DNA of 20,000 nucleotides, taken from an uncultured virus (IMG/VR IMGVR_UViG_3300021431_000014). Lineage: Duplodnaviria; Heunggongvirae; Uroviricota; Caudoviricetes. How positions within the stretch are numbered: position 1 is the first letter of the stretch; each line of letters opens with the position of its first letter. Location of the stretch: the IMG/VR virus record IMGVR_UViG_3300021431_000014; one strand, written 5' to 3'. Below are positions 8,872 through 19,861 of this stretch, in pieces. Under the pieces are notes generated by a model. It ran no database searches and had not been told where the DNA came from. It saw only the letters and a program-made list of their open reading frames with translations. The translations under genes were made by a program, and so were the position numbers.

Positions 8872-11800
8872 ATGGCTATCCAACATAGACGAGGTAATTA
8901 TAGTGACTTCGACCCATCAAAAACAGTAGCAGGAGAATTTAATGTTGTTCAAAACGGTGACCCAATAGCATCTGATGGAGAAGCTGTATATATAGCTTTC
9001 CAAACAGGAAAAGTAAAACGATTAGCAACGTATGATGAATTGCAGGATTATAATCAACGTTCTGAACAACTGTTAGAACAAGTAACAGAAAAGGCTACGG
9101 CAGTTAATCAGAATTATCAAAATACCGTAACTAAAGCAAATGAAGCGAGTCAATCTGCTACTGATGCGGCAACTGCAAAAACAGCAGCCGAGAAAGCAAA
9201 AACTGATACACAAGCATTATTAGATAATGCACAAACAACTATACAAGAATATACTGATGATGCAAAAGCTGATTTACAAACAGCCGTTGACGAGGCTGAT
9301 ACTCATATAACACAAAGTAAAGAATCTGCTATAGCCGATATTGATGCTGAATATCAAGATAGAAAAGCTGAAATAGATGCTAAGATAGACCAAATTATTG
9401 CAGTAAAAACTTCAGCCGAAGAAATAGCAACTGAAGCCAAAAATAAAGCAGATGGTTTGGAATTGGATGTTGCTGAATTAGCAGGCAAAACTTCTAATCT
9501 TACTACCAAAGTGAATAATTTACAATTCGATATGGATAGTAGTATTCACGGTTGGTATGTGGATATGCAGAAACGTCTTATCTTTACTGACGTTGACGGT
9601 AATCCCATCGGCGAACCTATTGAAGGTATCGGCGGCGGTGGCGGAGGTGGGGGCGGCGGTTCTTCCACTAACGCTGAAATGTCAGCACAAAATACTACAG
9701 GTTGGATTAGTAAAAGTATATCAGCCGGTGATTCAATCAGTGTAAAGATTTTATGGTCATCTATTGAAAATGATTTACCTACAGGCAACGGTGTTGTAAC
9801 GATTAAAGTTAATAACTTAACAAGAGCAACATTTGAAGTTCCGCAAGGTGAGTTGACACTAAATCTTACTGAATATTTATCTGCGGGGACTAACAATGTA
9901 AAGATAAGTGTAGCAGATATTTACGACCAGATAAGAACATTAGGCTTCAATATATCTGTATTAGACTTACGTATTACTTCAACATTTGACCCGTCAACAG
10001 TATTTGAAGGTGCTATATCTGTACCTGTTACTCCTTACGGCGATGTTGAAAAAATATTGTATTGGGAACTTGACGGCACAGTTATTCACACTCAGAATAC
10101 AAGCGCATCCGGCAGACAGATTACATATACTATTCCGGCACAAAGTCATGGAGCACATAAATTAAGATTATATTTTGAAGCAACCGTTAATAATCAAACT
10201 GTACGTTCCAATGTTTTATATTATGAGTTTATATCTCTTGAAACATTAAATAACACACCGATTATTATTAGTCCGTTTAATACAACTGAAGTTAGTCAGT
10301 TTACTATCGTTAATATACCGGCCACTGTCTATGACCCGCCAAACGCTACAACTACTGTTACAACATTTATAAATGATGTGCAGGCAGATAGATTCTCCGG
10401 TGTTGACAGAACAGAACATGTATATACTGTTAAAGCAAATGAAGTCGGTACATTAAAATTTGAAATTGCTTGCGGAAAAGTTAAAAAGACGTTCACATTA
10501 AATGTAGTAGAATCTGAAATTCACGTAGAACCGGAAACTGATAATCTTGTATTATACTTATCTTCTTATGATAAGAGTAATGATAGAGAAGATAGAAATG
10601 AGTGGAAATACGAAGATATTACAACTACATTTACAGGTAATAACTATGTAACAGACGGTTGGATAGCTGATAATGAAGGTTTTGTAGCACGAAGATTTTC
10701 CGGTGATGCGAGAGGAACAATAAACCTTGAATTGTTCAAAAACGATTTTCGTAGAACAGGTAAAACTATTACTATTGAGTTTGCCGCAAGAGATGTATTA
10801 AATTATGATACACCTATTATTTCTTGTATGAGCGGAGGTATAGGATTATCTATTACTCCTCAACGGGCTACATTGATGTCAGAACAATCTTCGTTAAGTA
10901 CCCAGTATAAAGAAGATGAACATATAAGACTTGATTGGGTTATTGAGAAACGAAACGAACACAGAATAGGTCAAATGTATATTAATGGAATTTGTTGCGG
11001 AGCTATTCAGTATCCGGACGATGATGCGTTTTCACAAGCATCTCCCGTAAATATAAGTTTAGGTTCAAGTGATTGTGTACTGGATTTGTATTGTGTAAGA
11101 GTTTACGATAATAACTTATCCAGAATACAGGTTCTTAATAACTGGATTGCAGATACACCGGACGGCAATACAATGTTGAGAAGATATCAACACAATGATA
11201 TTTATGATGCATACGGTAATATTGTTATTTCTAAGCTCCCGAAAGACTTACCGTATTTAATTCTCGAAGGGCCGGAATTACCGCAGTCTAAAGGGGATAA
11301 AAAAACTATGTCGGGTAGTTATACTGACCCAATGTATCCGTCAAGGTCATTTACATTTATAAATGCCCAAGTAGATGTACAGGGTACTTCTTCACAGTAT
11401 TATCCGAGAAAAAATTATAAAGTTAAATTTAAAGGCGGATTCATTCTTCCAAACGGTTCCACAGTAAGCACTTATGCTATAAATAATGATGCTATTCCTA
11501 CAAATACATTTACGTTTAAAAAGGACTTTGCATCAAGTGAAGGTTGTAATAACGTTGAATTAGTAAGAACGTATGACGTTGTTTGTCCATACAAGACTCC
11601 GGGTCAGAAGTCAAATCCGAAAGTTAGACAGGGTATTGACGGTTTCCCGATTGTTATTTTCTGGCGAGATACTACAACTGATACAGTAAAGTTTGTCGGC
11701 AAATATAATTTCAATAATGATAAGGGTACACCGGAAGTATTTGGATTTGTTGAAGATGATGAGTCTTGGGAAATCAAGAATAACACAGGTAATCGTGTTA

Positions 11801-12243
11801 TTTGGAAAGATAATAATTATGCAGGTACAGCATGGCTCAATGACTTTGAAGCACGTTATCCGGATACTGACCCGCCGTATGAAAATCCTGCCCAGTTACA
11901 AGAATTTGCAACATGGGCTATGACAACTGATACAACAGCGGCAACAGGAAACACATTGTCGGAACCGGTAACTTATCGTGTAAAAACTACCGAAATTGTA
12001 GAACATATTGACCCGAATACAGGAGCAATTTCTTATGAAGAGGTAGAAGTAACAAAAGACGTTACATTTACTACAGACACAGCCGAATATAGACTTGCTA
12101 AGTTTAAAGACGAAGCAAGTAATTATATGGAAATGGATTCGGCGTTATTCTATTATTTATTCACTGAATTATTCTTAATGGTAGATAATAGAGCAAAGAA
12201 CGCATTTCCGTCATTTATAGGGGAGGCAGTGGTTACGGAATGA
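8872..12243 (+). CDS. Large tail fibre/adhesin part 1: Mtd_N-like anchor, coiled coil, Gly10 hinge, beta-sandwich/LamG-like domains, N-terminal part of a CotH-like kinase domain
   Basis: RBS AAGGAGGG; 'MAIQHRRG...AGEF' resembles fibre anchor N-termini; Ala/Gln/Lys heptads to about aa 220; 10 Gly at 9631-9660; 'QMYINGI...ISLGSSDCVLDLYCVRVYDNNLS' is LamG-like; 'VQGTSSQYYPRKNYKVKF', 'GKYNFN' and 'VDNRAKN' are CotH-like motifs. Confidence 0.75.
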   Translation: MAIQHRRGNYSDFDPSKTVAGEFNVVQNGDPIASDGEAVYIAFQTGKVKRLATYDELQDYNQRSEQLLEQVTEKATAVNQNYQNTVTKANEASQSATDAATAKTAAEKAKTDTQALLDNAQTTIQEYTDDAKADLQTAVDEADTHITQSKESAIADIDAEYQDRKAEIDAKIDQIIAVKTSAEEIATEAKNKADGLELDVAELAGKTSNLTTKVNNLQFDMDSSIHGWYVDMQKRLIFTDVDGNPIGEPIEGIGGGGGGGGGGSSTNAEMSAQNTTGWISKSISAGDSISVKILWSSIENDLPTGNGVVTIKVNNLTRATFEVPQGELTLNLTEYLSAGTNNVKISVADIYDQIRTLGFNISVLDLRITSTFDPSTVFEGAISVPVTPYGDVEKILYWELDGTVIHTQNTSASGRQITYTIPAQSHGAHKLRLYFEATVNNQTVRSNVLYYEFISLETLNNTPIIISPFNTTEVSQFTIVNIPATVYDPPNATTTVTTFINDVQADRFSGVDRTEHVYTVKANEVGTLKFEIACGKVKKTFTLNVVESEIHVEPETDNLVLYLSSYDKSNDREDRNEWKYEDITTTFTGNNYVTDGWIADNEGFVARRFSGDARGTINLELFKNDFRRTGKTITIEFAARDVLNYDTPIISCMSGGIGLSITPQRATLMSEQSSLSTQYKEDEHIRLDWVIEKRNEHRIGQMYINGICCGAIQYPDDDAFSQASPVNISLGSSDCVLDLYCVRVYDNNLSRIQVLNNWIADTPDGNTMLRRYQHNDIYDAYGNIVISKLPKDLPYLILEGPELPQSKGDKKTMSGSYTDPMYPSRSFTFINAQVDVQGTSSQYYPRKNYKVKFKGGFILPNGSTVSTYAINNDAIPTNTFTFKKDFASSEGCNNVELVRTYDVVCPYKTPGQKSNPKVRQGIDGFPIVIFWRDTTTDTVKFVGKYNFNNDKGTPEVFGFVEDDESWEIKNNTGNRVIWKDNNYAGTAWLNDFEARYPDTDPPYENPAQLQEFATWAMTTDTTAATGNTLSEPVTYRVKTTEIVEHIDPNTGAISYEEVEVTKDVTFTTDTAEYRLAKFKDEASNYMEMDSALFYYLFTELFLMVDNRAKNAFPSFIGEAVVTE
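9631..9660 (+). repeat. Poly-glycine (GGN)10 hinge
   Basis: ggcggcggtggcggaggtgggggcggcggt, in frame, between the coiled coil and the globular domains. Confidence 0.9.
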
Positions 12244-15200
12244 GTATAAAGAAAAAAATTGTTTGGTTGCCATATGATATGGATACTGCAATCGGTATTA
12301 ACAATGAAGGTGAGTTGGTGTTCAGCTATGAATTAGAGGACACCGACCACCTCGCCGGTGGTGCAGACGTATATAACGGACAAGATTCTGTAATATGGAA
12401 TAATATTAGGATGGCATTTGCAGATGAATTACGTAATATGTATCAAAAATTACGTTCAGAAGGTAAATTATCCTATGAAACTGTAGAAAAAGCATTTGAA
12501 GAACATCAAGCTAAATGGCCAGAAGCATTATTTAATGAAGATTCACAATTCTGTTATATTGACCCACTTATTTATGATAATAAAAACTATCTTGAAATGT
12601 TACAAGGCAGTAAAGAAGAACAACGTAAATGGTGGTTATATAATCGTTTTAGATACATTGACAGTAAGTATAATGCAGGCGATGCGTTATCTGATTTAAT
12701 TCAGTTACGTTCATATGCAAAATCCAATATTACTATTACACCATATGCAGATATTTATCCTACTGTTAAGTTCGGTTCTTATCTTGTATCAAAACGAGGT
12801 AAAAGAAACGTTGCCACATTACTTGAGTGTCCTGTCGATGCTTTGAATGATACCGAAACATATATCTATAGTGCGTCACAGCTTGCAAGTGTTGGAGATT
12901 TAAGTGGTTTAAAAGTTGGATTTGCAGACTTTTCAATGGCTGTTAAATTGCAATCTCTTAAATTAGGTGATAGTTCTTCAAACTATGAAAATCCAAATTT
13001 AAAAGTTCTTACACTCGGTAATAATATATTACTGCAAACACTTGATGTTAGAAATTGCTCGGCATTAGGTAGCGGCGATATGAAAGTTGTTGACATATCC
13101 GGATGTACAGGAATAAGAAAAGTGTGGTTTACAGGAACACAGATAACCGGTTTAACATTACCAATCGGCGGCGTATTAGATGAGTTAGCTTTACCTGCTA
13201 CAATGACTAATATAACAGTTAGGAATCAGCCGAGACTTACATCTTTTACATTTACAGGAAACAGTTATTCTGCTGTAGGTACTTGTAGAATTGAGAACAC
13301 AGATTATTTTTTAAAGAACCAATCTTGGTTTAATCAGATATTAAAATCACAAGAATCGGGCGGATTAAAACAGGGATGTAGATTAAGACTTGTAGGACTG
13401 GATATTAATTGGTTAGCCGATACAGATGCTATATCAGATTTTTATGCTTTATTTACCGGTGAAGGTAGATTTAGAGGACTTGATATAACAGGTGGTGAAC
13501 AAGATACTCCATATCTTGATGGCACAATTCATATTAATTCTGCAAAAGGCTCAGAAATAGCAAGATTAAAACAAATATTTCCGTATGTAAATATCGAAGC
13601 CGAACACACAGAATCTTATATCTACTATTATAATGGTAGTACACTTGTTTATACTGAAAAGGTATTAGACGGTGGTAACGGAACATATGCAGGAACCCCG
13701 ACAAAAGCATCGGATGCTCAGTATACTTATACATTTGCAGGGTGGTCAAAAGATGATGACAATACAGTTGATAGTGATGCTTTAAATAACATTGTTGCTG
13801 ACAGAAACGTTTATGCTTGCTTCACAAGTACCTTACGTAAGTACAATGTTACATTTGTTAAAGCAAGTGCAGACGGCGGCGGCACATTACAGACTATTCA
13901 AAATGTTAACTACGGCACTGTAATCACAGCAGCAAATGCTTACACAGGTGCTACACCTACAACATCGCAAGGTAGCGCAGAGGATTATCCGTTTGAAGGA
14001 TGGAGTCCTGCAAGTGCTACGGTGACTGGTAATACTACCTTCACGGCGATGTTTGGTAGTCCTGTTGAAGTGGTTGAGATTACGGATTCGTGGGATACGA
14101 TTATTGCTAACATTGATAATGGGACTTATAAGACGATATATAAAGTCGGGAATTATAAAGCAATCAGTTTAGGCTCCAATTATCAAACAGCATACGCACA
14201 GATAGTTGGCTTTGATGCAGATACAGACCGCGCAGGAAATACTATACCAATTTCATTTACATTAAAAAATGTAATCAAAAAATCAGACGATACCAATTAC
14301 CAGTTGTATTTTGATAAAAATGATAATGACTGGGAATCGTCTTACATCAGAACGCAACTGAATACCACACTTTTCGATTTGTTAACAATAAACAATACAT
14401 TTGGGAACAGAATTACAGCCGCCCAGAAATACACATATAATTTGCCAAACGATATAGAAACAATGTCGATTGATTCGCTGTGGCTTTTAAGTATGCGAGA
14501 ATTTTGGGGAGGATCCACATTTGCGGAGCATAGTGGTCCGACATATAAGTTACGAGAGAACTGGATAGAAAATAATTCATATGGCTGTTTTAGAACAACG
14601 GGTCCATATCAGGGTAGTTGTTATTTTAACAACGGAAACTCATTCAGTTATTCCAGCAAGAGAAATGATGAACTCGTTAATTTTGGCTTCTGCCTCGGCC
14701 TCGAACCCGAAACCATCACAGACGATTGGCCAACCATCCTTGCCAACGAGAACTATGCTACGGATTATAGCATCGGCGATACCAAATATCTCGACCTCGG
14801 TACAGAGGGCAAACAGCTTATGGAAATCGTGGCGTTTGATACGGATGACAGAGCGGACGGACAGGGTAAGGCTGGGATTACGTGGATAAGTAAAGGGTTG
14901 TTGTATACTCCTATGCCTATGAATGCCACTCAAAAAACTGTAGATGGTGAAACCCTTGCAACGGCGGGAGGTTGGTTACATTCAGACATGAGAGCGTATT
15001 TGAAGAATACAATCAAACCACTTATTCCTGAGACTGTTAGAAATGCTATTGTGTCTGTTACTAAAGTGCAATCCATTTATACAAATGGGGAAAGAGTTGC
15101 CAACGGTCAAACAACAACGGATGACGTTTGGATTCCATCCGCCTATGAAATATTTGATGTCACAACTTATGAAAGTACAGGCGCTACGTATACCGGCGTA

Positions 15201-15371
15201 TTCAAAGATGCAGATTCACGAATTAAGAAACGTAAAGGTGTTAATGATATGTGGTGGCTGCGTTCTGTAAGCGGTAATCGCAGTTTTCGTGATGTTACTG
15301 GTGCCGGAATTAATAATTACCGTGAAGCTACTTCAACCGTATATATCGCCCTCGGTTTCTGCACCAATTAA
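12240..15371 (+). CDS. Large tail fibre/adhesin part 2: C-terminal part of CotH-like kinase, LRR-like region, two InlB B-repeat-like units, two DUF6273-like domains
   Basis: ATGA overlap with the previous gene; begins 'WLPYDMDTAIG' (CotH DxD motif); 'LQTLDVRNCSAL...VDISGCTGIRKV' is LRR-like; 'PTKASDAQYTYTFAGWS' and 'YPFEGWSP' are B-repeat-like; two ITDxW...GFC units, the last with WWLRS. Confidence 0.78.
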   Translation: MSIKKKIVWLPYDMDTAIGINNEGELVFSYELEDTDHLAGGADVYNGQDSVIWNNIRMAFADELRNMYQKLRSEGKLSYETVEKAFEEHQAKWPEALFNEDSQFCYIDPLIYDNKNYLEMLQGSKEEQRKWWLYNRFRYIDSKYNAGDALSDLIQLRSYAKSNITITPYADIYPTVKFGSYLVSKRGKRNVATLLECPVDALNDTETYIYSASQLASVGDLSGLKVGFADFSMAVKLQSLKLGDSSSNYENPNLKVLTLGNNILLQTLDVRNCSALGSGDMKVVDISGCTGIRKVWFTGTQITGLTLPIGGVLDELALPATMTNITVRNQPRLTSFTFTGNSYSAVGTCRIENTDYFLKNQSWFNQILKSQESGGLKQGCRLRLVGLDINWLADTDAISDFYALFTGEGRFRGLDITGGEQDTPYLDGTIHINSAKGSEIARLKQIFPYVNIEAEHTESYIYYYNGSTLVYTEKVLDGGNGTYAGTPTKASDAQYTYTFAGWSKDDDNTVDSDALNNIVADRNVYACFTSTLRKYNVTFVKASADGGGTLQTIQNVNYGTVITAANAYTGATPTTSQGSAEDYPFEGWSPASATVTGNTTFTAMFGSPVEVVEITDSWDTIIANIDNGTYKTIYKVGNYKAISLGSNYQTAYAQIVGFDADTDRAGNTIPISFTLKNVIKKSDDTNYQLYFDKNDNDWESSYIRTQLNTTLFDLLTINNTFGNRITAAQKYTYNLPNDIETMSIDSLWLLSMREFWGGSTFAEHSGPTYKLRENWIENNSYGCFRTTGPYQGSCYFNNGNSFSYSSKRNDELVNFGFCLGLEPETITDDWPTILANENYATDYSIGDTKYLDLGTEGKQLMEIVAFDTDDRADGQGKAGITWISKGLLYTPMPMNATQKTVDGETLATAGGWLHSDMRAYLKNTIKPLIPETVRNAIVSVTKVQSIYTNGERVANGQTTTDDVWIPSAYEIFDVTTYESTGATYTGVFKDADSRIKKRKGVNDMWWLRSVSGNRSFRDVTGAGINNYREATSTVYIALGFCTN
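14076..15371 (+). repeat. Tandem diverged duplication of a DUF6273-like domain (14076-14696 and 14709-15368)
   Basis: EITDSWDTII..YKVGNYK..QIVGFDAD..W..SYIR..L..DSLWLLSMRE..FGFC aligns by eye with ETITDDWPTIL..YSIGDTK..EIVAFDTD..W..SDMR..L..DDVWIPSAYE..LGFC. Confidence 0.85.
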
Positions 15372-15400
15372 TCATAGTAACTCGTAAACCCCGCACCACA

Positions 15401-15428
15401 GAAGGAGGTATAACCTTGTACTCCCTTC
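15401..15428 (+). terminator. Imperfect hairpin after the tail operon (possible terminator)
   Basis: GAAGGAGGTATAA-CC-TTGTACTCCCTTC, imperfect inverted repeat; followed by an A-rich rather than T-rich tract, so it may act mainly on the minus strand. Confidence 0.4.
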
Positions 15429-15437
15429 AAATAAAAA

Positions 15438-15466
15438 TTTACAATTAAACCCAACTATGTTATACT
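15438..15466 (+). promoter_or_regulatory. Sigma-A-type promoter with extended -10
   Basis: TTTACA (15438-15443), 17 nt spacer, TATACT (15461-15466) preceded by TGn; A-rich tract upstream; 32 nt before the ATG at 15499. Confidence 0.7.
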
Positions 15467-15498
15467 TATAACAAATAAAAACGAAAGAGGTATCTACT

Positions 15499-15765
15499 AT
15501 GTCCTACATTCCCTATGCTATATCATTTCTATCTTTATTGCTTGCCGCTTATACGTTTTTAAGCAAGAATAATAAAGAAAATACATCTGAGTTAACAACT
15601 GTAATTGTTAAGTTGGAGAACATAGGCAACGGAATTTCTGACATTAAAAAAGAAATAGCAAGCATGAAAGATGACCAAAAAGAAGACCATGACAGACTTA
15701 TAAAAGTCGAAACGTCTTTAGCATCTTTATGGAAACAGTTTAATAACGAGATTAAGAAGGAATGA
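15499..15765 (+). CDS. Small single-TM plus coiled-coil protein (holin / XhlA-like)
   Basis: 88 aa; N-terminal hydrophobic helix IPYAISFLSLLLAAYTFL then heptads ending 'HDRLIKVETS'; RBS GAAAGAGGT; position after the tail fibres. Confidence 0.65.
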   Translation: MSYIPYAISFLSLLLAAYTFLSKNNKENTSELTTVIVKLENIGNGISDIKKEIASMKDDQKEDHDRLIKVETSLASLWKQFNNEIKKE

Positions 15766-15769
15766 AGAT

Positions 15770-15979
15770 GTGCAAATCTATGATTTTACAGAACCGGAAT
15801 TAGATAAGTTTAGGGAATTGTGTAACTTTTCTGATGATGAATTAGAGTATCTAAATATAAAAGCAAAGCGCAAAACAAACATACAAATAGCTATGCAAAT
15901 GCACGTGAGTGAAGCACAAGTATCAAAGTTAGCAAAGCGTGTAAGAAATAAAATAATAAGAGTTCTTCCTTATTTATAA
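15770..15979 (+). CDS. Stand-alone LuxR/GerE-type helix-turn-helix protein
   Basis: 69 aa, GTG start; 'FSDDELEYLNIKAKRKTNIQIAMQMHVSEAQVSKLAKRVRNKI' fits the LT.rE..vl.....G.sn.eIA..l.vS..TV......i..Kl pattern; no receiver domain. Confidence 0.75.
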   Translation: MQIYDFTEPELDKFRELCNFSDDELEYLNIKAKRKTNIQIAMQMHVSEAQVSKLAKRVRNKIIRVLPYL

Positions 15980-15998
15980 AGAATCATATAATTTTCGT

Positions 15999-16031
15999 AA
16001 AGAAGTCGTACAAGTGTACGGCTTCTTTTTT
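15999..16031 (+). terminator. Intrinsic terminator-like inverted repeat (possibly also an operator)
   Basis: AAAGAAGTCGTAC-AAGT-GTACGGCTTCTTT, 13 bp stem with one G-U pair, ending in a T6 run. Confidence 0.75.
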
Positions 16032-16067
16032 GTTTACAATAAAATAAAAAGACAGGAGGTACATAAT

Positions 16068-16247
16068 ATGCAAGACATTGGAGTAGCGTTAACAACTATT
16101 ATGCAGGCTAAACAGTGTTCGCCTATTTGTGCCTTCTTTTTGTTATCAGAAAAGCAGAAAGAGGGTGACATAAATGGGATTCATAAATTACAACCCGAAC
16201 CCGAAAAGAAAGTTAGTAGGAGATTGTGTAATAAGAGCAATTTCTAA
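16068..16247 (+). CDS. Small hypothetical protein (59 aa), first ORF of the cassette
   Basis: Near-perfect RBS AGGAGGT (16054-16060) 7 nt before ATG 16068; overlaps the next gene by 74 nt, which lowers confidence in its 3' half. Confidence 0.55.
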   Translation: MQDIGVALTTIMQAKQCSPICAFFLLSEKQKEGDINGIHKLQPEPEKKVSRRLCNKSNF

Positions 16248-16554
16248 AACGATGAATCGAGATTGGGAAGATACATATATAGACATTATGTTGCAGGGAT
16301 TTTCTATGCACGATATGCCGTCCTCTAATAACGTATGGGGAACATATTTAGCACAACACGGATTTAAAAGATATGTCATTCCCGATACTTGTCCCGATTG
16401 TTATACAGTTAATCAATTTGTCACGGACAATCCCGATTTAACAGGAATATTAGCTACAGGAACGCATGTTATAGCTATAGGTGACGGGAATTATTACGAT
16501 ACGTGGGATAGCGGAAATGAAATTCCGATTTATTACTGGCGAAAGGAGATGTAA
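16174..16554 (+). CDS. Hypothetical protein, putative papain-fold (C39-like) Cys-His-Asp enzyme
   Basis: 126 aa, RBS GAGGGTG; 'GDCVIRAIS' (Cys at helix start), 'THVIAI' (His on strand) and 'YYDTWDS' (Asp) occur in papain-like order. Confidence 0.6.
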   Translation: MGFINYNPNPKRKLVGDCVIRAISKTMNRDWEDTYIDIMLQGFSMHDMPSSNNVWGTYLAQHGFKRYVIPDTCPDCYTVNQFVTDNPDLTGILATGTHVIAIGDGNYYDTWDSGNEIPIYYWRKEM

Positions 16555-16556
16555 CG

Positions 16557-16991
16557 ATGGCATACAATAACGGATTTCCTATGACATATCAACAGATGTA
16601 TCCGCAATATGTTGCTTCGTCATTTCAGCCGCAAATGACACAACAGCAACCTCAAATGATGCAACAACCTGTTAGTGATAACGGCATTTTATGGGTACAG
16701 GGTGAAGCAGGAGCAAAGTCATGGGCAGTAGCTCCCGGTAAAAGTGTAATGCTTATGGATAGTGAGTCAAATACTTTTTACATTAAATCATCTGACCAAA
16801 GCGGTATGCCGATGCCGTTAAGAATATTTGATTATACAGAAAGAAACTCCCAACAGCCAACACAACCTCAAGTAGTACAACATCAAGAAATTGATACATC
16901 ACAGTTTGTTACATGGGATGCATTGGATGAAAGATTAAATGAGATGCTTGCAGTTAAAAAAGAGCATAGAAGGGAGAAAATAGATGGCTAG
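16557..16991 (+). CDS. Hypothetical protein with Gln/Pro/Met-rich low-complexity arms and a small beta-rich core
   Basis: 144 aa, RBS AAAGGAG; core 'ILWVQGEAGAKSWAVAPGKSVMLMDSESNTFYIKSSDQSGMP'. Confidence 0.85.
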   Translation: MAYNNGFPMTYQQMYPQYVASSFQPQMTQQQPQMMQQPVSDNGILWVQGEAGAKSWAVAPGKSVMLMDSESNTFYIKSSDQSGMPMPLRIFDYTERNSQQPTQPQVVQHQEIDTSQFVTWDALDERLNEMLAVKKEHRREKIDG

Positions 16992-17214
16992 TTCAGTATT
17001 TAATTCATTGGGAAATAAATCTCCAAAACTACCCGGACCGTTCGGAAATATGCAGGAAATGATGAGTAAACTAAATCAGTTTAAACAATCTTTTCAAGGT
17101 GACCCGAAACAGCAGGTTCAACAGCTTCTTAATTCCGGGCGTATGTCACAAGAACAATATAATAGGCTTTCTCAAATGGCAACACAAATTCAAAATATGC
17201 TTACTAAACAGTGA
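16984..17214 (+). CDS. Small Gln/Met-rich helical hypothetical protein
   Basis: 76 aa, 8 nt overlap with the previous gene, RBS AAGGGAG; 'GDPKQQVQQLLNSGRMSQEQYNRL'. Confidence 0.85.
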   Translation: MASSVFNSLGNKSPKLPGPFGNMQEMMSKLNQFKQSFQGDPKQQVQQLLNSGRMSQEQYNRLSQMATQIQNMLTKQ

Positions 17215-17241
17215 TACATAAATCTGGCCGGATTTTAGTAT
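17214..17241. promoter_or_regulatory. Intergenic dyad / stem-loop upstream of the 308 aa gene
   Basis: ATAC-AT-AAATCT-GGCC-GGATTT-TA-GTAT imperfect inverted repeat in the only sizeable intergenic gap inside the cassette. Confidence 0.45.
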
Positions 17242-17270
17242 AAATAACTTTACGAAAGGAGTTAAAGACA

Positions 17271-18197
17271 ATGGCTTTAACAGAAGAGAACGGAGGTAAC
17301 GGTATGATTATGCCAGTAGCACCTATGTACGGTGGCGGCGGTTCCGGCTTTGGCGGCTGGGGCGGTGACGGCGGATGGTGGATTATTCTGCTTTTCCTGT
17401 TCGCTCTTGGCGGCGGCTGGGGTAACGGCTTCGGTGGTGGCATGGGAGGCTTTGCGGCTGACGGTGCAGTTATTTATCCTTGGATGAACCAGTCGAATCA
17501 GATTAATGAAGGTTTCCGTGACCAGATGATTAACGATAATGTTACATCTATTAGGGACGGAGTTACCGGAATTGCAACACAGCTTTGCAACGGGTTTGGT
17601 GATGTACAGCAGTCCTTATGCAATGGTTTCGCAGGAGTTAATGCAACAGTTAATGCTGGATTTGCTAACGCAGAAACGGCTAACAATGCTCGTCAGATGG
17701 CGAACATGCAACAGGCGTTCGCTATGCAAACTGCTATGGGACAGGGATTTAATCAACTTGGCACTCAGTTTGCCGATTGTTGCTGTGAAAACAGACTTGG
17801 TTTAGCAGACCTTAAATATACTGTGGCTACAGAGAACTGTGCCGACAGAACCCAGTCTATGCAGAACACGAGGGACATTATTGATAGTCAGTCTCGCGGT
17901 ACCCAGGCGATTCTGGATAAATTATGTCAGCTTGAACTGGATGGTGTCAAGGCTCAGGTTGAAGCAAAGAATGATAGAATTTCTGAGCTTCAGACTCAGC
18001 TTAACATGGCTAATCTGGCTGCTTCGCAGACCGCTCAGAACGCTCTTATTCAGAACGGTTTTGCAAACGAGGTTGATGCTCTGTATAACAGACTCAATAG
18101 TTGTCCGGTTCCCACTACTCCTGTTTACGGAAGGACTCCTATCTTTACTTGCCCGCAGAATCAGACTTCTTGCGGATGCGGTTGCGGTAGCTTCTAA
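17271..18197 (+). CDS. Hypothetical protein: Gly/Trp-rich N-terminus around a hydrophobic segment, Asn/Gln/Ala-rich coiled coil, Cys clusters
   Basis: 308 aa, RBS GAAAGGAG; 'GGWGGDGGWWIILLFLFALGGGWGNGFGGG', 'DCCCENR', heptad stretch 'LDKLCQLELDGVKAQVEAKNDRISELQTQL', C-terminal 'SCGCGCGSF'. Confidence 0.9.
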   Translation: MALTEENGGNGMIMPVAPMYGGGGSGFGGWGGDGGWWIILLFLFALGGGWGNGFGGGMGGFAADGAVIYPWMNQSNQINEGFRDQMINDNVTSIRDGVTGIATQLCNGFGDVQQSLCNGFAGVNATVNAGFANAETANNARQMANMQQAFAMQTAMGQGFNQLGTQFADCCCENRLGLADLKYTVATENCADRTQSMQNTRDIIDSQSRGTQAILDKLCQLELDGVKAQVEAKNDRISELQTQLNMANLAASQTAQNALIQNGFANEVDALYNRLNSCPVPTTPVYGRTPIFTCPQNQTSCGCGCGSF

Positions 18198-18208
18198 GGA
18201 GGTGCGAT

Positions 18209-18664
18209 ATGGCGGCAGAATATTTAGCAAATCCTATTCAAGAAGTAGCACTTAATGCTCCTATCTTGTTTAATGCTTCTATTCCTTGTAATCGTGGTTA
18301 TATTTATCACGAAGACGAAACAGGAATTTTTATTCTCCGTGGTATCACTAACGGACAGTGCTTTGCTACTTATCAAGTGACCTTCAACGGGAATATTGCT
18401 ATTCCCGAAGAGGGCACTGTCACACCAATCGCAGTGGCAATAACTGTAAACGGTGAACCTAGAGTAACGAGTAGAGCAATATTTACACCTGCGGCTGTTG
18501 ATGAATACGGTAATGTAACAAGTACCGCAATCATTAAAGTGCTGAAAGGTTGTTGCTTCTCCATTGCAGTGGAACATGTTGCGGCTACTACAGACCCGAC
18601 AGTAACCACGGCACCGATTATCAATGTCCAGAACGCAAATCTGGTCATTAATAGAATAGCGTAA
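18209..18664 (+). CDS. All-beta hypothetical protein, BclA C-terminal / C1q-TNF jelly-roll-like
   Basis: 151 aa, RBS TAAGGAGGT; alternating beta strands 'GIFILRG', 'YQVTFNGNI', 'IAVAITVNGEP', 'NVTSTAIIKV', and terminal 'NANLVINRIA' resembling the BclA-CTD ending (ASxxIxKxA). Confidence 0.6.
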   Translation: MAAEYLANPIQEVALNAPILFNASIPCNRGYIYHEDETGIFILRGITNGQCFATYQVTFNGNIAIPEEGTVTPIAVAITVNGEPRVTSRAIFTPAAVDEYGNVTSTAIIKVLKGCCFSIAVEHVAATTDPTVTTAPIINVQNANLVINRIA

Positions 18665-18680
18665 GAAAGGAGGTATAGTC

Positions 18681-19397
18681 ATGGATAAACATTATGAAGC
18701 AGTCAAAGAAATTCTTGAAGACCAGATTAAAAAGATTGTTAAGAAAGGTGACATATCTCCGCAGGAACTTGATAATCTGTATAAAGCATCTGCCATTTGC
18801 CTTGACTTTGAGACAAAGGACGCTATGAAGAAAGCTGAAGAACAGCAGAAACAGGGCGGTCAGTCTATGAACAGCTACAATATGAATAACCGTAGAGGTG
18901 CTTATAATATGGACGGTGGTAATTCCAATCATTACCCGTGGTTTATGTATGCCGGTGACGGTACGTATGATTTCGGTAATAGAGGAAATTCTTACGGTCC
19001 TGTTTGGAATCAAGAAATGGAGAATAAATCTTTGCACGAAGTACATTCGCAGGATTCTATGCGTTCCACTAGAAGGGGCGTAGACGGAACCGGCAGAGAT
19101 AATTCTTATAATCGTTCTTATGAAGGTGCTTACGACGGAGCATATGACGGTGCTTATGACGGAAGTTACGAAGGTAGTTATGACGGCTCGTATGACGCTA
19201 ACGATAATTCCTATCGTAGAGGTCGTGACCAGAGAACAGGTAGATATGTAAGTCGTGATAACAATAACAGAGGTTATAGTCGTGCAATGGACAAACAGCG
19301 CATGATAGGTAAACTCGAAGACATGATGGATGATGCTCCGTCTGAAAAAGAACGGCGCACATTACAGCAGTGTGTTGACAAACTGGAAAGACAGTAA
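18681..19397 (+). CDS. Hypothetical protein with helical ends and a Tyr/Gly/Asp/Arg/Asn low-complexity centre
   Basis: 238 aa, RBS AAAGGAGGT; (Y-D/E-G-A/S)n repeat followed by 'RRGRDQRTGRYVSRD'. Confidence 0.88.
   Translation: MDKHYEAVKEILEDQIKKIVKKGDISPQELDNLYKASAICLDFETKDAMKKAEEQQKQGGQSMNSYNMNNRRGAYNMDGGNSNHYPWFMYAGDGTYDFGNRGNSYGPVWNQEMENKSLHEVHSQDSMRSTRRGVDGTGRDNSYNRSYEGAYDGAYDGAYDGSYEGSYDGSYDANDNSYRRGRDQRTGRYVSRDNNNRGYSRAMDKQRMIGKLEDMMDDAPSEKERRTLQQCVDKLERQ
19119..19202 (+). repeat. 12 bp in-frame tandem repeat x7 (YEGA YDGA YDGA YDGS YEGS YDGS YDAN)
   Basis: tatgaaggtgct tacgacggagca tatgacggtgct tatgacggaagt tacgaaggtagt tatgacggctcg tatgacgctaac. Confidence 0.92.
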
Positions 19398-19402
19398 TTT
19401 AT

Positions 19403-19430
19403 AGGGAGGGTTATTGCCCTCCCTTATTTA
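19403..19430 (+). terminator. GC-rich hairpin, probable (leaky) intrinsic terminator
   Basis: AGGGAGGGT-TATT-GCCCTCCCT followed by TATTTA, 5 nt after the stop at 19397. Confidence 0.7.
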
Positions 19431-19454
19431 AGTATATAAATAAGGAGGTAAATC

Positions 19455-19802
19455 ATGGATATAAACACAATAAACAATTTAATAAAGGACACAGAAAACA
19501 GTGAAACGACCTTATCTAATATACGAAACTTATCAGCCTTGTACAATGTGAGAAACATACTACTTAATAATAAAGAAGAAACACGAACAGAAACAGAATT
19601 AAAAGATATTTTACCTTCTTATTTAGGATACATAAACATAAAACGAAAATATCAACTGCATAAAACGACAAACGACAATGTAATCATAGCTATGAAAGCC
19701 CTATGTACCGAGATAAAAGAATTTATACAAACGCTATACAGTTCAACAGATACACCTCAAGAGCGAGATATAATAAAAGAGATGATAAAAGAGATGCCGT
19801 AA
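19455..19802 (+). CDS. Helical hypothetical protein (115 aa)
   Basis: RBS TAAGGAGGT; AT-rich ORF; 'IRNLSALYNVRN' and 'LCTEIKEFIQTLYSSTDTPQERDIIK'. Confidence 0.85.
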   Translation: MDINTINNLIKDTENSETTLSNIRNLSALYNVRNILLNNKEETRTETELKDILPSYLGYINIKRKYQLHKTTNDNVIIAMKALCTEIKEFIQTLYSSTDTPQERDIIKEMIKEMP

Positions 19803-19821
19803 GGTATCTCTTATTTTTTTT
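19789..19821 (+). terminator. Intrinsic terminator overlapping the stop codon
   Basis: AAGAGATGCC-GTAA-GGTATCTCTT (GNRA loop containing the TAA stop) followed by A and T8. Confidence 0.85.
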
Positions 19822-19832
19822 CAAAAAAAGTG

Positions 19833-19861
19833 TTGACATATATATAAAGATGTAGTATAAT
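19833..19861 (+). promoter_or_regulatory. Consensus sigma-A/sigma-70 promoter
   Basis: TTGACA (19833-19838), 17 nt spacer, TATAAT (19856-19861), with T8/A7 tracts upstream (UP-element-like). Confidence 0.92.

Follow-up and report, generated by a model that had tools for sequence, protein, structure and literature searches.

Does the 308-residue protein p308 build part of a virion, as a preliminary description made from the sequence alone had proposed, or does it act inside the infected cell? The gene lies in a window of 20,000 nucleotides (the whole stretch of DNA that was analysed) from an uncultured virus (IMG/VR IMGVR_UViG_3300021431_000014). The window represents the late region of a siphovirus-like phage, with a Gp15-type chaperone, a tape measure, and tail and fibre genes extending to 15371. 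Within 8872-15371, adjacent genes for 1123- and 1043-aa proteins each align with parts of the 2494-column profile of PHROG 14959; the 1043-aa gene, the second of the pair, ends in DUF6273, and the pair is possibly a split tail or fibre protein. Close relatives are IMG/VR contigs and ruminant-gut genome bins, the bin labels being too mixed to identify a host. The host is probably clostridial, since Butyrivibrio phage Ceridwen shares 54% identity and the same cassette. After the fibre genes follow an 88-aa gene, an HTH gene, a hairpin, seven genes (16174-19802) and a second hairpin. The features are given below; fractions are the loci at which a partner was detected with HMMs built from the loci, among 113 loci with at least 2.5 kb on either side.

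15499..15765, plus strand: 88-aa protein with apolar N-terminus and coiled coil (PHROG 1863; 12/113 loci, loosely linked)
15770..15979, plus strand: 69-aa HTH protein, GerE/sigma region 4-like below curated cut-offs (59/113 loci)
15999..16028, plus strand: terminator-like hairpin between the upstream genes and the cassette
16174..16554, plus strand: p126, 126-aa putative cysteine peptidase (PHROG 3754; 98/113 loci)
16557..16991, plus strand: p144, with Gln/Pro/Met-rich N-terminus (PHROG 21718; 92/113 loci)
16984..17214, plus strand: p76, Gln/Met-rich (PHROG 22984; 79/113 loci)
17222..17237 (approximate limits), no strand: imperfect DNA palindrome in the gap before p308, a possible operator
17271..18197, plus strand: p308, the core gene (PHROG 16490 member; by sequence a homologue of CSP1_021, PHROG 9288)
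p308 residues 36-46: 11-residue apolar helix in the Gly/Trp/Phe-rich head
p308 residues about 78-170: hendecad rod, followed by CCC at residues 170-172
p308 residues 222-276: end of the rod in heptads, followed by a Pro/Cys tail at residues 277-308
18209..18664, plus strand: p151, TNF/C1q jelly-roll with an invariant CC (PHROG 20016; 100/113 loci)
18681..19397, plus strand: p238, helical partner with central Arg/Asp/Tyr/Gly low-complexity region (99/113 loci)
19455..19802, plus strand: p115, helical partner (80/113 loci)
19789..19812, plus strand: terminator-like hairpin closing the cassette

At the 113 loci the partners were never found on the strand opposite to p308. The residues D17, C18, H98 and D109 are invariant in p126, which we take to be a peptidase (C39/papain-like) and which is named by no library. 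The model of p151 is confident (pLDDT 90.5) and its fold matches BclA-CTD, F-BclA and ExsF/BxpB (Foldseek E 1e-7 to 5e-6); two divergent p151 relatives match PF18573, below its cut-off. In 110 of 138 loci p151 lies within 30 nt downstream of p308. Co-occurrence of the p308 tail and the p151 knob (n = 154) gave both in 127, discordance in 11 and 11 and neither in 5, using a tail pattern that missed many real tails. The predicted complex of three p151 chains with p308 residues 255-308 was poor (score 0.02, mark 0.32; controls not folded). In p238, YDG(A/S)-type repeats stand in tandem and the Arg/Asp/Tyr/Gly-rich middle varies in length; many of its relatives measure some 130-140 aa. In contrast to many relatives, the window has no identified endolysin at 15371-16174, the stretch from the last fibre gene to the cassette; this stretch holds only the HTH gene and the apolar-headed 88-aa protein, which might, by inference from its sequence, be holin-like or holin-associated. 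Just past the cassette terminator (19833-19861) lies a perfect sigma-70 consensus (12/12), the start of another unit. Endonuclease genes (HNH-type or other) occur within or beside the cassette in Ceridwen (L081 24928-25722, by motif), C3_41T2LP (L174 5006-5626) and Dulem 33 (L086 7013-7564).

The open reading frame of p308 is real, and the motifs described for it were confirmed in position: WWIILLFLFAL starts at residue 36, QLCNGF at 104, SLCNGF at 115, VNAGF at 127, CCC at 170 and CGCGC at 301, and residues 1-67 are 37% Gly. Purifying selection is evident from a dN/dS of 0.08-0.11 against 8/8 tested relatives. Conservation was assessed in an alignment of 144 rows, comprising the window, 111 of 150 representative hits (127 passed the length/start filter and 16 further ones were removed by eye because of aberrant ends), 24 loci and 8 close proteins. 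The apolar core is retained in 143/144 rows, the central CC/CxC cluster in 121/144 and at least two tail Cys in 132/144, so that the hydrophobic segment and the Cys clusters are indeed conserved among homologues; the family has 11 Cys on average. p308 belongs to PHROG 16490 (E 1.7e-37), which is also matched by Vibrio, crAss, archaeal and enterobacterial homologues and which cross-hits with PHROG 9288. Its function is listed as unknown, with no curated function, and some records are mislabelled as spike, fibre or chaperone. The family is large, with at least 8000 members at 90% clustering (8000/8000 scored candidates) and 1978 clusters at 50%. Neither Pfam nor NCBIfam held a curated match for p308; PDB sequence searches gave weak helical matches only, a protein atlas search gave unnamed viral clusters only, and no capsid, tail, toxin or fusion family was matched in family, PDB and fold searches.

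AlphaFold2 predicts a short helix (37-45) and a single helix (77-277) for p308, with a mean pLDDT of 70 and a pTM of 0.31; about 200 residues at 0.15 nm per residue correspond to a length of about 30 nm. The model contains no globular monomer, and one long helix of this kind must oligomerise, which agrees with the proposed oligomeric helix and not with a soluble monomeric fold. Fold searches with the model returned nothing significant. The long heptad run noted earlier is present and clean, but only at residues 222-276 (p=0.003); the NGF repeats are hendecad, with a period of 3.67 at residues 78-170 (p=0.0003, versus p=0.38 for a heptad over the same span). The length of p308 varies in 11-residue steps, 88 of the 91 measurable rows (those in which both anchors were found) falling on two ladders. 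The rod is Asn/Gln-rich (21-26%), and Phe makes up 39% at one position of the hendecad core; such a bulky core suits a filled low-order coil. Membrane insertion was supported in part: the N-terminus is membrane-seeking, but its apolar core falls short of the usual length of a transmembrane helix. The apolar run has a median of 10 residues with an acidic, Lys/Arg-free flank, the 19-residue hydropathy reaches 1.6 or more in only 47/144 rows, and the best 19-mer scores +2.4 on the position-independent Hessa scale. A signal-peptide-like start was found in 0/176 sequences of the p308 family and in none of the seven cassette families, and p308 has no C-terminal membrane anchor. Enterobacterial homologues carry an N-terminal glycine zipper (GxxxG), versus the WWIILLFLF type in p308.

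High expression had been proposed from skewed codons, a strong RBS and an upstream hairpin, and these three signals fared differently. Codons are skewed toward CAG (23/26), AAC (17/29) and GCT (17/32), with ATA at 0/14, and C-ending Phe/Tyr/Ile/Asn codons make up 27/63 in p308 versus 208/910 in five tail genes (p=7e-4). GGT/GGC, also named in the preliminary description, is not special (32/44, versus 71/110 in the tape measure gene and 50/70 in a fibre gene). The codons of the Ceridwen homologue (27/61) are indistinguishable from those of its own phage's capsid gene (30/53; p=0.26), a comparison in which codon use resembles that of a highly expressed gene. The RBS is ordinary and not strong, at -8.5 kcal/mol versus -12.4 to -13.2 for three downstream genes. 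The upstream element looks, from its sequence, more like a DNA palindrome than an RNA hairpin: it is loop-less with 7/8 pairs, and the 60 nt upstream of p308 hold no stable RNA fold in the window (-6.1 versus -6.5 +/- 2.1 in shuffles). A palindrome occurs upstream in 34% of 153 homologues versus 18 +/- 3% in shuffles, and upstream of four other cassette genes in 7-12%. Counting against the palindrome and in favour of a hairpin, 38% of 60 relatives tested fold well upstream (RNA fold z < -2). RNA libraries of two studies contain near-identical cassette contigs, one of which covers 17671-19765 without mismatch; coverage is more continuous for the cassette than for the tail genes, which have only short, scattered contigs, but contigs cannot rank genes. 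The cassette contigs show presence only, and not level, strand or timing, and DNA carry-over is possible.

Stepwise searches of 50,697 phage records revealed p308 homologues in 143 Vibrio phage records, in crAss-like and other Bacteroidota phages, in Clostridium perfringens phages and in viruses assigned to Methanomassiliicoccales (L178 5632-6555; L179 5641-6522). A Klebsiella phage query retrieved 187 records, mostly of enterobacterial phages, and hhalign of each lineage group against the window family gave 98-99.9%. In the archaeal virus vir215 the homologue follows a reverse transcriptase and lies beside a tail gene. A tree of 32 homologues groups them by host lineage on long branches. This host range led us to reject a sporulation-specific role, given the homologues in Vibrio, enterobacterial, Bacteroidota and archaeal viruses. 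The carriers are podo-, sipho- and myoviruses with unrelated capsids and tails, and the family is common in strictly lytic phages. p308 is the sole cassette gene common to all lineages, and the partner genes differ by lineage: Vibrio phages have only an approximately 66-aa partner and often a divergent HTH gene, and enterobacterial phages have three other partner genes. Likenesses seen by eye between partners (p76 and enterobacterial gene D, p144 and the Vibrio 66-aa gene, p238 and gene B) found no support in hhalign comparisons of small alignments. The C1q-fold knob p151 is absent from the enterobacterial, Vibrio and archaeal versions, and the four Vibrio and two archaeal-virus forms examined lack both the Pro/Cys tail and a p151 homologue.

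The module is also repeatedly missing. Coliphage TLS matches Bas08 at 92-98% on both flanks and lacks 1.7 kb with the homologue and two partners; it keeps (L189 11762-12061) a 97%-identical piece of the last (fourth) operon gene of Bas08 (L181 4755-6454), which makes the two a natural test pair. A T5-like copy of the module is broken, phage AAS23, for which a proteome exists, lacks the operon, and Seurat, GottfriedDienst and CSP1C lack all or part of the module. Past the Seuratvirus operon, a 67-aa Cys/Pro-rich gene (L184 5782-5985) resembles the p308 tail by eye. Repeated loss in laboratory-grown phages (TLS, CSP1C, Seurat, GottfriedDienst) would be expected if clear-plaque variants were picked. 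p308 is the core gene of a mobile, dispensable and very widespread phage cassette. Since the module is dispensable, the proposed role as a major virion subunit is excluded for the family: the homologues are neither essential nor fixed in a genus (absent from TLS, CSP1C and Seurat, with CSP1C keeping its burst size), the virion types are unrelated, and p308 matches no known structural fold or family of a capsid, tail tube or sheath protein. The presence of the core gene alone in all lineages, across podo-, sipho- and myoviruses, fits a role on the host side better than a fixed site in the virion.

A functional lead comes from CSP1_021 of the coliphage Seuratvirus CSP1. Direct BLASTP, run without composition correction, aligns p308 and CSP1_021 at 27% identity over 279 columns (E 8e-16), the p308 family HMM scores CSP1_021 at 24.3 bits versus at most 4.5 bits for 200 shuffles and 7.6 bits for tape-measure pieces, and hhalign of the p308 family with CSP1_021 gives 99.4% versus 41% for the reversed alignment. 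Judged by these comparisons, p308 is homologous to CSP1_021. The homology goes beyond composition and is accompanied by an apolar N-terminal segment without a signal peptide, as in the superfamily of CSP1_021 and PHROGs 9288 and 16490. CSP1_021 was identified as ARW59041.1 (locus CSP1_009) by gene sizes in KY982929, where genes of 3081, 708, 369 and 531 bp in a row have the paper's sizes for CSP1_020-023; the KY982929.1 locus tags CSP1_010-007 correspond to CSP1_020-023 by size and order.

According to the available text of the CSP1 study (Kim & Ryu, 2025; PMC13577005), CSP1 forms turbid plaques, and a 4,672-bp deletion (CSP1C) makes the plaques clear, while adsorption, latent period and burst stay unchanged. 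CSP1_020 (a tail fibre), CSP1_021 and CSP1_022 jointly restore lysis suppression by complementation and together block a cloned holin and endolysin; suppression is overcome by an excess of holin or by DNP, and in two-hybrid assays only CSP1_021 gave a signal with the holin. CSP1-infected cells die, remain unlysed and elongate, and progeny are freed by chloroform (PMC13577005). Lysis inhibition in T4, by comparison, needs superinfection (PMC13577005). CSP1_021 resembles p308 in its rod, its GFAGxN and CCCE motifs, its apolar N-terminus without signal peptide, its dispensability and its place as first gene or core of an accessory operon. It differs in length (235 vs 308 aa), in its glycine-zipper head (vs WWIILLFLF), in its short tail, in its Gram-negative host, and in lacking a C1q-fold or peptidase-like neighbour; its partners CSP1_022/023 are not detectably related to those of the window. 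For the two neighbours that CSP1_021 needs for suppression no homologue was detected in the window: CSP1_022 gave less than 30% in hhalign against all eight window-cassette families, and 0.4% against short p238 members. Thus, p308 is by its sequence a member of the CSP1_021 superfamily and not of the CSP1 three-gene set as defined. The antiholins RI/RIII of T4 and LydB of P1 are comparable in their proposed membrane-associated inhibition of holin (PMC13577005), but they are small, lack a 200-residue rod and a multi-gene cassette, and have no sequence link that we found.

The position of the cassette is suggestive as well. It directly follows holin/endolysin genes in eight annotated genomes (Ceridwen, a Vescimonas prophage, bajarodcaudo 5, Dulem 33, Vibrio 82E32.3 and 1.259.O, cr116_1 and cr4_1), and of the cassette loci 63/97 have a small membrane-type ORF in the 3 kb upstream, versus 20/103 downstream (p=5e-11). 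However, accessory genes usually sit downstream of lysis genes too, and in Dulem 35, C3_41T2LP, PJ16/9NA-like phages and CSP1 itself the cassette is found at a distance from the lysis genes.

It is tempting to speculate that p308 is an oligomeric, membrane-anchored lysis-delay factor acting inside infected cells, as the core of a portable, dispensable module; we assign this reading a probability of about 0.45. With no export signal and one short Gly-flanked apolar helix, p308 would sink into the cytoplasmic membrane and leave its rod in the cytoplasm. The helix of about 200 residues, with its 11- and then 7-residue repeat, may self-assemble into a parallel coiled coil; should the C1q-fold neighbour cap the rod, a trimer would be most likely. 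The membrane end would engage the holin, as reported for CSP1_021, and delay hole formation while the proton motive force lasts, after which progeny would leave slowly. Lineage-specific partners, here the peptidase-like, low-complexity and C1q-fold proteins, might build or regulate the assembly, and the Cys clusters could cross-link it or bind metal. The anatomy, dispensability and homology of p308 were observed, and we infer membrane insertion, oligomer number, holin binding and the roles of the partners.

Several points speak against lysis delay. Its functional basis is one paper on one distant homologue (27%), with no single-gene phage deletion reported. The need for the tail fibre CSP1_020 is unexplained, and the working set is not conserved, CSP1_022 having no homologue here. 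The burst of CSP1C is no higher than that of CSP1, and two hydrophobic proteins can give an unspecific two-hybrid signal. Furthermore, the N-terminal segments differ, holins differ between hosts, and no endolysin was identified in the window. An abundant extracellular structure would account better than a regulator for the capsid-like codons, the average of 11 Cys and the C1q neighbour of spore-surface type.

The main rival to lysis delay, ahead of exclusion, a pore former and a pilot tube, is a stalk-and-knob virion fibre. A p308 trimer would form a stalk of about 30 nm on the particle, with the apolar head attached to it and p151 as a cap, serving in adhesion, aggregation or protection outside the cell. 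The closely linked p151 gene and its BclA-CTD/F-BclA/ExsF fold favour such an appendage, as do the 11-residue length steps, which are as in fibres, the joint lack of tail and p151 in Vibrio and archaeal-virus forms, and the frequent place of enterobacterial copies after a lateral fibre gene. The exosporium proteins BclA, F-BclA and ExsF/BxpB (PDB 1wck, 9h38, 8d02, 9h3d; PF18573) share the TNF/C1q fold of p151 and have Cys-rich partners; however, BclA and F-BclA have a collagen-like stalk fused to the head, whereas p308 is alpha-helical with the knob in a separate gene, and phages of hosts that do not sporulate carry its family as well. In RefSeq, crAss homologues bear the label 'spike protein/glycoprotein' or 'outer capsid protein/viral fiber', but no experimental support for these labels was found and the same family is elsewhere called 'sugar-binding protein' and 'tail fiber chaperone'. 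The missing knob in whole lineages and the unrelated capsids and tails of the carriers argue against an appendage, and the text available for CSP1 states that its visible fibre was restored by CSP1_020 alone (PMC13577005). We regard the appendage as unlikely.

Also quite unlikely is that the cassette builds an abundant, Cys-cross-linked scaffold under the membrane of the infected cell, with p308 rods, C1q caps and maturation by the peptidase, which would close the killed host as a slow-release container for virions. This would reconcile capsid-like codons and spore-coat-type parts with the dead, unlysed and elongated cells of CSP1. If true, it would be a prokaryotic-virus counterpart of the exosporium or of occlusion bodies, common to bacterial and archaeal viruses.

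A role as an accessory gene of the host envelope, which would exclude superinfecting phages or mask receptors when expressed in infected or lysogenic cells, appears very unlikely. The self-contained unit between terminators with its own HTH gene, the divergent HTH gene of Vibrio phages, the accessory hot spots and the RNA contigs from two studies would suit such a gene. The prevalence of the family in strictly lytic phages and the lack of export signals do not, and CSP1 kills cells as efficiently as CSP1C (PMC13577005). The RNA contigs, as stated above, show neither level, strand nor timing.

Class I viral fusion proteins have a signal peptide and a C-terminal membrane anchor. Both are absent from p308, which speaks against the fusion protein or secreted toxin considered earlier. 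The Gly/Trp/Phe-rich apolar head before a long coiled coil and the GxxxG zipper of enterobacterial homologues would be in line with a pore former, a toxin or a fusion-like protein, acting by membrane damage or fusion, but no toxin or fusion family was matched, and in E. coli assays expression of CSP1_021 went with suppressed, not caused, lysis (PMC13577005). For p308, such an activity is highly improbable.

A DNA-pilot-like helical tube, comparable to microvirus protein H, is barely credible. Protein H has an amide-rich rod that runs from hendecad to heptad and forms an essential decameric tube; p308 shares the rod and its repeat switch and has an apolar Gly-rich head, but the resemblance goes without a significant sequence or fold match (a microvirus pilot protein ranked 14 in the viral fold search, E 2.9, not significant), the family is dispensable, the carriers have a tape measure or other ejection proteins, and the bulky Phe core is better suited to a filled low-order coil.

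Our literature search found no paper on the cassette, but it overlooked the CSP1 paper too and so does not show that the cassette is absent from print. The portions available of PMC7372960, PMC8594841, PMC8310023, PMC4276943, PMC8004638, PMC11990801, PMC8583763, PMC6266253, PMC5758909 and PMC11447400 contain no discussion of the p308 gene.

In summary, p308 may serve many gut phages as a brake that delays lysis and slows release, rather than as a new virion building block. With the link to CSP1_021, thousands of phages from gut and rumen, crAss-like ones and methanogen viruses among them, gain a candidate lysis-delay system, and database labels such as spike, sugar-binding protein and fibre chaperone are corrected. 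Laboratory phages with and without the module are at hand (CAjan, Bas08 vs TLS, CSP1 vs CSP1C, Ceridwen). The finding bears on how abundant gut phages can persist while their hosts do not collapse, and on why some phages form turbid plaques or lose the module in culture.
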